The notes: generated by a model from the letters alone, not told the origin. Shown: positions 5,466 to 5,550, counted from the first letter of the stretch. The stretch: 9,683 nt of DNA from a virus (IMGVR_UViG_2531839374_000010:1-9683); one strand, 5' to 3'. Program-made: numbers and translations.

Positions 5466-5550
5466 ACTCAATTGAAAGCGCGTTCCGGAGGTTTTGGACT
5501 TAACGAACTGGCACTTAATGACAAGGGACAGAACGCGCTTTCAGTTGAGT
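5466..5550. repeat. 20-bp inverted repeat (ACTCAATTGAAAGCGCGTTC / GAACGCGCTTTCAGTTGAGT) separated by a 45-nt spacer
   Basis: Arms at 5466-5485 and 5531-5550 match at 19 of 20 positions. The single mismatch is a G-U wobble on plus-strand RNA and an A-C mismatch on minus-strand RNA. Confidence 0.7.

Follow-up and report, generated by a model that had tools for sequence, protein, structure and literature searches.

A family of long hairpins at the head of the early-left operon in SfV/ST64B/mEp390-like prophages

What is a long, nearly perfect inverted repeat doing in the untranslated leader of a prophage operon, when it is no terminator and resembles none of the operators nearby? The repeat in question lies in a stretch of 9,683 nucleotides, which we call the window and which is an SfIV/SfV-like lambdoid prophage integrated at tRNA-Thr(CGU) (1369-1444). 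Our analysis indicates that the repeat belongs to a family of hairpins under selection as structures, and we suggest, tentatively, a role in the processing or stability of the leftward transcript.

The repeat and its place in the prophage

A repeat search confirmed two arms of 20 nt each (5466-5485 and 5531-5550), complementary at 19 of 20 positions (95%) and separated by a spacer of 45 nt, exactly as originally predicted; this is the longest and best inverted repeat of the whole window. If one asks for a 20-nt arm pair with at most one mismatch and a spacer of 3-100 nt, the window holds exactly one such repeat, and none appeared in 300 first-order Markov simulations of the window. Folding of the hairpin gives -34.7 kcal/mol on the plus strand (z -4.5) and -35.6 kcal/mol on the minus strand (z -5.4), in each case better than 200 of 200 dinucleotide shuffles. 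The repeat is far above chance and is not an artefact.

The other descriptive claims of the original prediction also hold. The lone odd pair, T5472/G5544, is a G.U pair on the plus strand and a C.A mismatch on the minus strand. The hairpin is not a classical terminator, there being no U-tract 3' of it on either strand: the plus strand continues with AAAAAGG, and the minus strand has CCUUUUU directly 5' and GGGGAAA directly 3'. We therefore rejected an intrinsic terminator on these flanks (the U-run of the minus strand is 5', not 3') and on the 45-nt loop. The repeat contains no GTACA operator motif, which agrees with the claim that it does not resemble the operators. Finally, it was said to lie between a cargo gene and the early-left operon, and it does: it sits in the untranslated leader of the leftward early operon, the order being cargo gene, repeat, HD hydrolase. 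The features needed below are as follows.

7511-6837, minus strand: LexA-family cI-like repressor, then its terminator
6770-6797, minus strand: PL-like promoter TTGACA-16-CACAAT with two 20-bp operator-bearing (GTACA-containing) direct repeats; same arrangement in SfIV
6632-6644, minus strand: boxA-like CGCUCUUUAACAA / CGCTCTTTAACAA in the PL-proximal leader, a leader shared with SfIV, ST64B and L022
6327-5731, minus strand: AT-rich cargo ORF
5701-5723, no strand assigned: GC-rich hairpin right after the cargo ORF stop, terminator-like on the plus strand and also placed to end a leftward cargo transcript
5558-5585, minus strand: weak hairpin upstream of the U-run, in place of the relatives' terminator T1; an upstream type found in 4 loci
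5551-5557, minus strand: U-run CCUUUUU (leftward sense) abutting the 5' arm; in relatives the U-tract of intrinsic terminator T1
5466-5550, minus strand: big hairpin (IR2, subtype A), 20-bp stem and 45-nt apical region, from repeat search, folding, simulations and homologue pair counts
5496-5508, minus strand: conserved apical motif, leftward sense GUUCGUUAAGUCC, from the homologue alignment
5459-5465, minus strand: GGGGAAA (GGAGAA in relatives), directly 3' of the hairpin leftward, partner of the U-run
5437-5452, minus strand: small hairpin GGCGAUGGCAGCCGCC with conserved loop U(G/U)GCAG and stems covarying among relatives; its plus version was flagged terminator-like
5309-5436, minus strand: rest of the leader to the HD-hydrolase start codon
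5379-5366, minus strand: leader hairpin UCGCC-UUAU-GGCGA
5343-5328, minus strand: leader hairpin GUGCG-GUGCAG-CGCAC, just before the SD
4772-5308, minus strand: HD family hydrolase, YfdR-like 5'-deoxynucleotidase, the first early-left gene here

Leftward transcription presumably starts from the PL-like promoter (6797-6770). Overlapping this promoter are two exact direct repeats of 20 bp, TGTACCCCATGGACACACAA (6750-6797, minus strand), presumably OL operators. The boxA-like site downstream is a candidate signal for antitermination, by which PL transcripts would get past the terminators below it. The sequence upstream of boxA-like CGCTCTTTAACAA, ACAGGCAGGAUGCCCACGAAGUAGCCGCCUGGGGCAU (leader 6632-6760, minus strand), is conserved in SfIV, ST64B and L022, and no Rfam family matches this PL-proximal leader, which may be the antitermination signal of phages without an N gene.

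Several observations concern the genes on either side. The cargo ORF (5731-6327), in an AT-rich island, has an N-terminal hydrophobic segment and no annotated function; it carries a TAA nonsense codon at codon 47 in the window, where the near-identical E. coli prophage of ECONIH4 has Q, and the intact ECONIH4 protein is WP_001764244.1 (198 aa). Leftward of the repeat, about 155 nt of further structured leader precede the HD-hydrolase gene, which heads a conserved early-left block. Within that leader an SD-proximal element (5315-5385, minus strand), consisting of the hairpin UCGCC-N4-GGCGA, GGGAUUCGUGCAACC and then a covarying-stem hairpin with loop GUGCAG about 10 nt before the SD, also stands ahead of the YfdR-like HD-hydrolase genes of many phages, there in an intercistronic position; it is found in K-12 CPS-53 (L199 5885-5965), SfIV and ST64B as well, and may be a translational operator or a processing site. 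An IS3-family element (3052-4310, with OrfA at 3112-3399 and OrfB at 3449-4267, both plus strand) interrupts the early-left operon; the ECONIH4 prophage is without it and has ISSpu7 (IS1634-like) at the same place.

A fixed slot filled by exchangeable hairpins

Is the repeat peculiar to this prophage? A pattern scan of IMG/VR matched at least 119 contigs; among the matches listed, 114 are true homologues; they comprise 71 distinct sequences, whose apical regions are of several very different kinds. A second scan took the ribosome-site-proximal leader as its anchor, which added divergent subtypes and brought the total to at least 132 loci. The element occurs in 21 of 5426 complete E. coli genomes, one copy in each, and among species-representative genomes in Enterobacter, Citrobacter, Silvania and three oddly labelled MAG contigs. 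Other E. coli prophages carry the segment 5305-5557 at about 88% identity, flanked on either side by different genes, and phage mEp390 carries it at 76% identity; one prophage retains the hairpin part alone. The K-12 prophages e14 and CPS-53 are without the hairpin, CPS-53, the nearest well-studied relative, having lost that part of the leader. In 1.06 Mb around the 114 homologues we found only sporadic, unrelated long inverted repeats besides, and none in the rightward operon.

Searches against Rfam returned only tRNA-Thr for the window (E at most 1) and only tRNAs for twelve loci at the gathering score; with Rfam 15, which includes STnc100, C4, DicF, AgvB, AsxR and tRNA, the big hairpin had no match in mEp390, SfIV or ST64B. 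A literature search by sequence strings gave no match, and we found no paper describing such hairpins. The family is undescribed, is widespread in SfV/ST64B/mEp390-like prophages and has a fixed place at the head of the early-left operon.

Read leftward, the homologues keep one order: terminator T1 with its U-run, the big hairpin, GGAGA(A/U), the small hairpin, and the remaining leader. The big hairpin begins 0-3 nt past the U-run of T1, a leftward intrinsic terminator for which the homologues use at least four unrelated stems, each followed by a U-run. In the small hairpin after GGAGA the stem covaries and the loop U(G/U)GCAG is constant. RNAalifold places 4-5 U-A or U.G pairs between the U-run and GGAGA in 12 of 12 representatives, and in the window the corresponding pairing of U-run and GGGGA would lengthen the stem from 20 bp to about 26 bp. 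The window is a variant of this arrangement, in which a weak hairpin has been swapped for the strong terminator and the U-run retained; homology to the relatives stops at that weak hairpin (5558-5585). Coupling to a terminator is thus only vestigial here, because the upstream terminator has been replaced. Read on the plus strand, 5459-5465 is the U-rich tail of a weak rightward terminator (5437-5462).

The same hairpin subtype is joined to at least four upstream and three downstream sequence types, making a mosaic joint on both sides. Since it occurs with different terminators and different downstream hairpins, it has been retained as a module across recombination events. Moreover, other hairpins fill the same slot, namely an L128 type, an L147 type and a "type Z" found in SfIV (L004 4661-4574, minus strand) and ST64B. 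These share a design, with a base CA(C/A/U)AAC...GUU(G/U)UG, a stem of 19-23 bp and an apex of 40-70 nt; stem sequences differ wholesale between subtypes, and complementarity is preserved over the 19-23 bp. In all IR2 subtypes the apical motif is kept (family consensus AGU(U/C)CGUUAAAU, or AGUYCGUUAAAU) while the remaining apex varies; within the window the motif has no complementary target beyond chance. In SfIV/ST64B/Stx2c phages type Z stands in the place of IR2, and its apex is a three-way junction with a CUCAUAA that resembles an anticodon loop. That apex is 82% identical to a tRNA-like third element in Klebsiella phage GZ7 (L191 1508-1575, plus strand), which in the Q-dependent late leader of Klebsiella phages follows tRNA-Asn and tRNA-Arg.

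About half of the relatives carry a second hairpin, H1, 100-290 nt upstream (CACAAC(A)UGAAAGCGCACUCC...GGAGUGCGCUUCCAGUUGUG), again with variants whose stems are wholly different but complementary. Its base CA(C/U)AAC...GUUGUG is that of IR2, the 3' flank GUUGUGG(U/A)GAA is common to both, and a mismatch or bulge 6-7 bp from the base recurs at the same place in the two. To judge from these shared sequences, IR2 is paralogous to H1. Directly against the 3' end of H1 lies a leftward tRNA-Arg(UCU), by its 5' end, or else an STnc100-type sRNA body or another short insert. In SfIV and ST64B the unit from H1 to T1 matches Rfam STnc100 (RF02076) with E=2e-6 and 1e-5 respectively, in neither case reaching the gathering score. 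Both STnc100 and PasD have been described as sRNAs of prophages (preprint 10.64898/2026.05.13.724894; PMC12370729). Because the STnc100-like sequence or tRNA unit ends at T1, the T1 ahead of the big hairpin is the terminator of a leftward sRNA/tRNA moron. The window contains neither a second hairpin of the H1 type nor an STnc100 match, having lost H1 and the sRNA/tRNA.

The neighbourhood of the slot is itself varied. In some relatives (L096, L110) the place of the tRNA between H1 and T1, some 270 to 90 nt ahead of the big hairpin, is taken by a 35-codon ORF for a very basic peptide, MAGLTVKRLRKDKQAKRSKRAYGLIERGWNGRLRY, which may be an arginine-rich RNA-binding peptide, or else a chance ORF inside an sRNA variant. 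In E. coli TST3 (L002, about 3300-3420) a strong promoter TTGACA-17-TAGATT with repeated AAAGTTGTTG lies some 130 nt upstream of T1, and between it and the repressor gene stands a BRCT-domain cargo gene that reads rightward; there, therefore, the early-left promoter meets a terminator almost at once, and then the hairpin. A second PL-proximal leader of about 200 nt, with the core GUACGAC..CCAGAGACG..GGUGUGACACCUCGGAAGAGACGAGG, is present in mEp390 (L003, 2900-3300, minus strand), where it is annotated as protein gp36, and in L096, L068 and L009; it is conserved in Salmonella, Klebsiella, Enterobacter and Stx phages (97 phage records) and has no Rfam family. To the right of H1/T1, between the hairpin region and the repressor, a rightward promoter-like TTCACC-16-TATTCT is conserved in L005, L006, L007, L017, L020 and L022 and drives variable plus-strand cargo (SieB-like, ECs1072 family, BRCT-domain protein). 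This region is a defence or cargo hotspot.

Selection on the structure, its strand and its possible role

For 35 distinct arm pairs, with the loop replaced by GAAA to keep the arms in register, 86.3% of the cells are paired in the minus sense and 7 of 21 stem pairs are changed on both sides; neither the 500 shuffles nor any slid register gave as many paired cells or as high a covariation score. For 12 full-length representatives RNAalifold gives 22 pairs in the minus sense, 6 of them with compensatory changes, counts which, the homologues being closely related, are not independent and reflect few events. Pairing is kept with compensatory changes, and therefore the hairpin is under selection as an intramolecular structure. 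The check that had been proposed for the original prediction, conservation and covariation among homologous prophages, thus comes out in its favour, with compensatory stem changes across more than 130 loci. Structure, conservation, covariation, fixed architecture and paralogy are observations that bear on every reading below.

Which strand, then, carries the structure? In the plus sense 90.7% of the cells are paired, and the plus fold is the more stable in 70 of the 71 distinct IR2 sequences among the matches listed, by 7.7 kcal/mol on average (in mEp390, -42.6 on plus versus -32.2 on minus). Columns 7/40, 10/37 and 11/36 read G.U, A-U or C-G on the plus strand but A.C or C.A on the minus strand, and an inner hairpin UUG-AUUUAA-CGA, with a U.G pair, forms on the plus strand only. 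On the other side, four other columns and the entire U-run extension have wobble pairs on the minus strand only, and the L128 type, type Z and the paralogue H1 are without plus bias and carry minus-only G.U pairs. Covariation does not pick the strand, there being wobble-only columns on both, and the plus stability bias is specific to IR2 subtypes. The original preference for the plus strand is therefore right as to fold stability; covariation splits, other hairpin types do not share the bias, and the context is leftward.

It is this context that leads us to favour a leftward transcript, because the hairpin is fixed after a leftward terminator and is paralogous to H1, which stands beside a leftward sRNA or tRNA. 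The extension by the U-run and GGAGA likewise favours the leftward sense because its U.G pairs exist leftward only, and the UGCAG-type loop would be used in the mRNA sense, since a second such hairpin lies 10 nt before the SD of the first gene. We consider it plausible, if short of probable, that the repeat is a processing or stability hairpin of the leftward PL transcript, comparable to the RNase III site of the lambda N leader.

How would such a hairpin work? Transcription of the region, its strand and the nuclease are parts of the model that we infer. On induction, RNA polymerase would start from PL (6797-6770), become resistant to termination via the boxA-containing leader, and pass the cargo region and its terminators. 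The nascent leftward RNA would fold the 20-bp hairpin, and in read-through transcripts only, the upstream U-run would pair with the downstream GGGGAAA/GGAGAA to give a duplex of about 26 bp. Either RNase III would cut this duplex, as in the lambda N leader and sib, or RNase E would cut the U-run and the hairpin would remain as a protective 5' stem-loop. Either cut would free the early-left mRNA, which encodes the HD hydrolase and the genes after it, from the cargo or non-coding RNA that precedes it and that in the relatives includes the sRNA or tRNA. In the lysogen, transcripts from cargo, sRNA or tRNA promoters would end at the U-run and never include the hairpin.

A stem of about 20 bp or more, equal to two helical turns, near-continuous and kept across unrelated sequences (20 bp in the window, about 26 bp when extended, 19-23 bp in all subtypes), has the length that RNase III needs, a length found at the lambda N-leader and T7 early sites. 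Against the leftward model stand the greater plus stability of IR2 subtypes, the three stem columns mismatched on the minus strand and, in the window, the merely vestigial coupling to a terminator. Moreover, the conserved apical motif AGUYCGUUAAAU is unexplained by a purely stem-dependent nuclease signal.

It is unlikely, in our judgement, that the repeat is instead a functionless relic which stayed on when cargo was exchanged, be it a copy of the 5' hairpin from an STnc100/PasD-type sRNA module or a tRNA-like element that has degenerated. The paralogy of IR2 and H1, down to the flank GUUGUGG(U/A)GAA, would fit such an origin, as would the tRNA-like apex of type Z and the T-arm contained in one H1 variant; the window, for its part, has lost H1, the sRNA/tRNA and the strong terminator, and the prophage is decaying (IS3 insertion, nonsense codon in the cargo gene). 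Yet the stem is nearly perfect even here (19/20) and has been kept through many recombinant contexts with compensatory changes, whereas a neutral 85-nt palindrome would decay or be deleted.

A plus-strand RNA, whether a small or antisense RNA that regulates the leftward leader or a structured segment of RNA reading through rightward (whose source would be the early-left side, in the window the IS3 element), we regard as unlikely. The plus stability, the three columns and the inner hairpin described above speak for it, and in the window a terminator-like plus hairpin (5701-5723) lies 150 nt downstream. That hairpin, however, is specific to the window and missing from the relatives, in which the plus sequence beyond the hairpin is the reverse complement of the leftward terminator and tRNA, without a U-tract. 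No conserved sigma-70-like plus promoter lies upstream in three leader types; candidate promoter hexamers in or beside the repeat were rejected on either strand, the spacing being non-conserved (11-16 nt) or the -10 element absent. Rightward transcripts would, moreover, end short of the hairpin because the weak plus terminator (5437-5462) directly precedes it. Nor does a plus-strand RNA explain the lack of plus bias in the other subtypes and H1, with their minus-only G.U pairs, or why the hairpin abuts a minus-strand U-run. A discrete plus-strand sRNA or antisense regulator, among the candidates first proposed for this repeat, is thus not supported; for an independent trans-acting sRNA we found neither an upstream promoter nor a conserved 3' terminator.

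It is quite unlikely that the element acts at the level of DNA, as a cruciform or single-stranded hairpin or a protein-binding inverted repeat insulated between convergent terminators, whether as a joint for recombination or module exchange, as a site connected with replication, or as one bound by an early protein, for example the relatives' ParB-like protein. The hairpin does lie between a leftward terminator and a weak rightward one and at a mosaic joint (at least four upstream and three downstream sequence types); mismatches are transitions on either arm, as an unoriented palindrome would accumulate; and a ParB-like protein is encoded two genes downstream in many relatives. Its stem, however, has been replaced wholesale with complementarity kept, and such swaps fit intramolecular pairing better than they fit binding by a sequence-specific protein. 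The window has no ParB-like gene, a centre-to-centre distance of 65 bp between the arms would be unusual in a dimer site, the 1.06 Mb of phage DNA around the homologues holds no further copy, and the leftward fork from the nearest origin would presumably expose the minus strand rather than the more stable plus strand. The suggestion of a relic recombination site survives in one sense only, that the hairpin stands at mosaic joints on both sides.

It is highly improbable that the repeat is a put-like or nut-like cis-acting RNA for processive antitermination at terminators further down the early-left operon: such internal terminators exist (before the first gene in L005, before the HD gene in the SfIV/ST64B type) and no N-like gene is evident, but the hairpin follows the first terminator instead of preceding it, is not similar to HK022 putL and has no second copy in the rightward operon, consists of one long stem as against the two stem-loops of put or the 5-bp boxB, and a boxA leader is already present beside PL.

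To return to the processing reading of the leftward transcript, one may extend it further, to a picture that we consider decidedly improbable, in which H1, IR2 and type Z are the punctuation of a modular non-coding "cassette array" in an antiterminated early-left leader. Each hairpin may then bound an exchangeable slot holding a tRNA, an STnc100/PasD-type sRNA, a tiny Arg-rich ORF or a defence-type cargo gene, and the hairpins may both release the cassette products by RNA processing and serve as swap joints. If true, this would amount to an rrn-operon-like or integron-like logic for phage-borne regulatory RNAs.

Significance and relation to known systems

A long hairpin in a leader is a familiar kind of element. 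What is new is that it is constantly fused to a terminator U-tract, that hairpin types are exchanged for one another, and that it is paralogous to the hairpin bordering the STnc100/PasD module. The SfV/ST64B/Stx2c/mEp390 group has no obvious N gene, yet carries terminators, sRNAs and tRNAs ahead of its early-left genes, which poses the question how these genes are insulated in the lysogen and released on induction. The hairpin family marks the exact border between cargo RNAs expressed in the lysogen and the lytic early operon, and among those cargo RNAs are the STnc100/PasD sRNAs, under current study in Salmonella as well as EPEC and EHEC. Should the hairpin serve as a signal for processing or retroregulation, one could understand how a single transcript gives rise to stable sRNA or tRNA and also to early mRNA, and mutating it would be a simple handle on the coupling of sRNA terminator read-through with induction. 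As an unannotated structured element it deserves a covariance model, which would stop ORFs from being extended through it (mEp390 gp35, YfdP-like genes). The host prophages are medically relevant, comprising Shigella serotype-converting, Stx2c, ST64B and mEp390 prophages.

Several established classes were considered and rejected. A nut site is contradicted by the absence of both boxA and boxB from the repeat, boxA-like CGCTCTTTAACAA lying elsewhere (6644-6632). An ERIC, REP or MITE repeat does not fit an element found at one place per genome in 21 of 21 E. coli carriers, always in the same prophage slot. The window arms fit the integron attC pattern RYYYAAC...GTTRRRY (ACTCAAC...GTTGAGT), but most relatives do not (CACAAC...GTTGTG or ACAAAAC), and no integron integrase is annotated in the relatives' loci. 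As for coding, the annotated start of mEp390 gp35 lies inside the leader, but relatives do not conserve the frame, a stop occurs in the window and the stems covary. Sigma-54 and IHF sites in the small-hairpin loop and apex misfit in spacing or consensus.

The closest precedents are the hairpin of the lambda N leader that RNase III reportedly cuts and the sib retroregulator. Like the former, IR2 is a big stem with a large apical domain in an untranslated PL leader, between an antitermination site and the first early-left gene; like sib, its full duplex (U-run with GGAGA) is possible only in transcripts that read through a terminator. Unlike both, to which it has no sequence similarity, the putative site abuts a terminator U-tract rather than containing the terminator stem, and it has a conserved apical motif and interchangeable sequence types. 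A second parallel is the ompA 5' UTR hairpin, said to be a 5'-terminal stabiliser stem-loop: here too 0-3 unpaired nt separate an AU-rich cleavable stretch from the stem, whose sequence is free to vary, although the IR2 hairpin is much longer and has a conserved apex.

RNase III sites lie between the early genes of phage T7. In boxA-led rrn operons, stems flank the 16S and 23S rRNA (PMC4807359). The phage leaders resemble both in that repeated, paralogous long hairpins punctuate a long, presumably antiterminated transcript that also carries tRNAs, and differ in that their hairpins are local stem-loops of about 85 nt. HK022 put is about 70 nt long and forms two stem-loops; it is placed immediately downstream of PL and once more downstream of PR, and it acts ahead of terminators (PMC9378689); it too is a cis-acting structured RNA in the early leader of a lambdoid phage without N, but none of its features of size, shape, position or copy number recur here, and blastn at word size 7 found no similarity between the HK022 PL-nun region and our element. 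A last comparison is with the STnc100/PasD module, whose Rfam model the relatives' H1-to-T1 unit matches: IR2 lies outside that model and has no terminator of its own, but is a paralogue of H1, the hairpin that borders the module at its 5' end.
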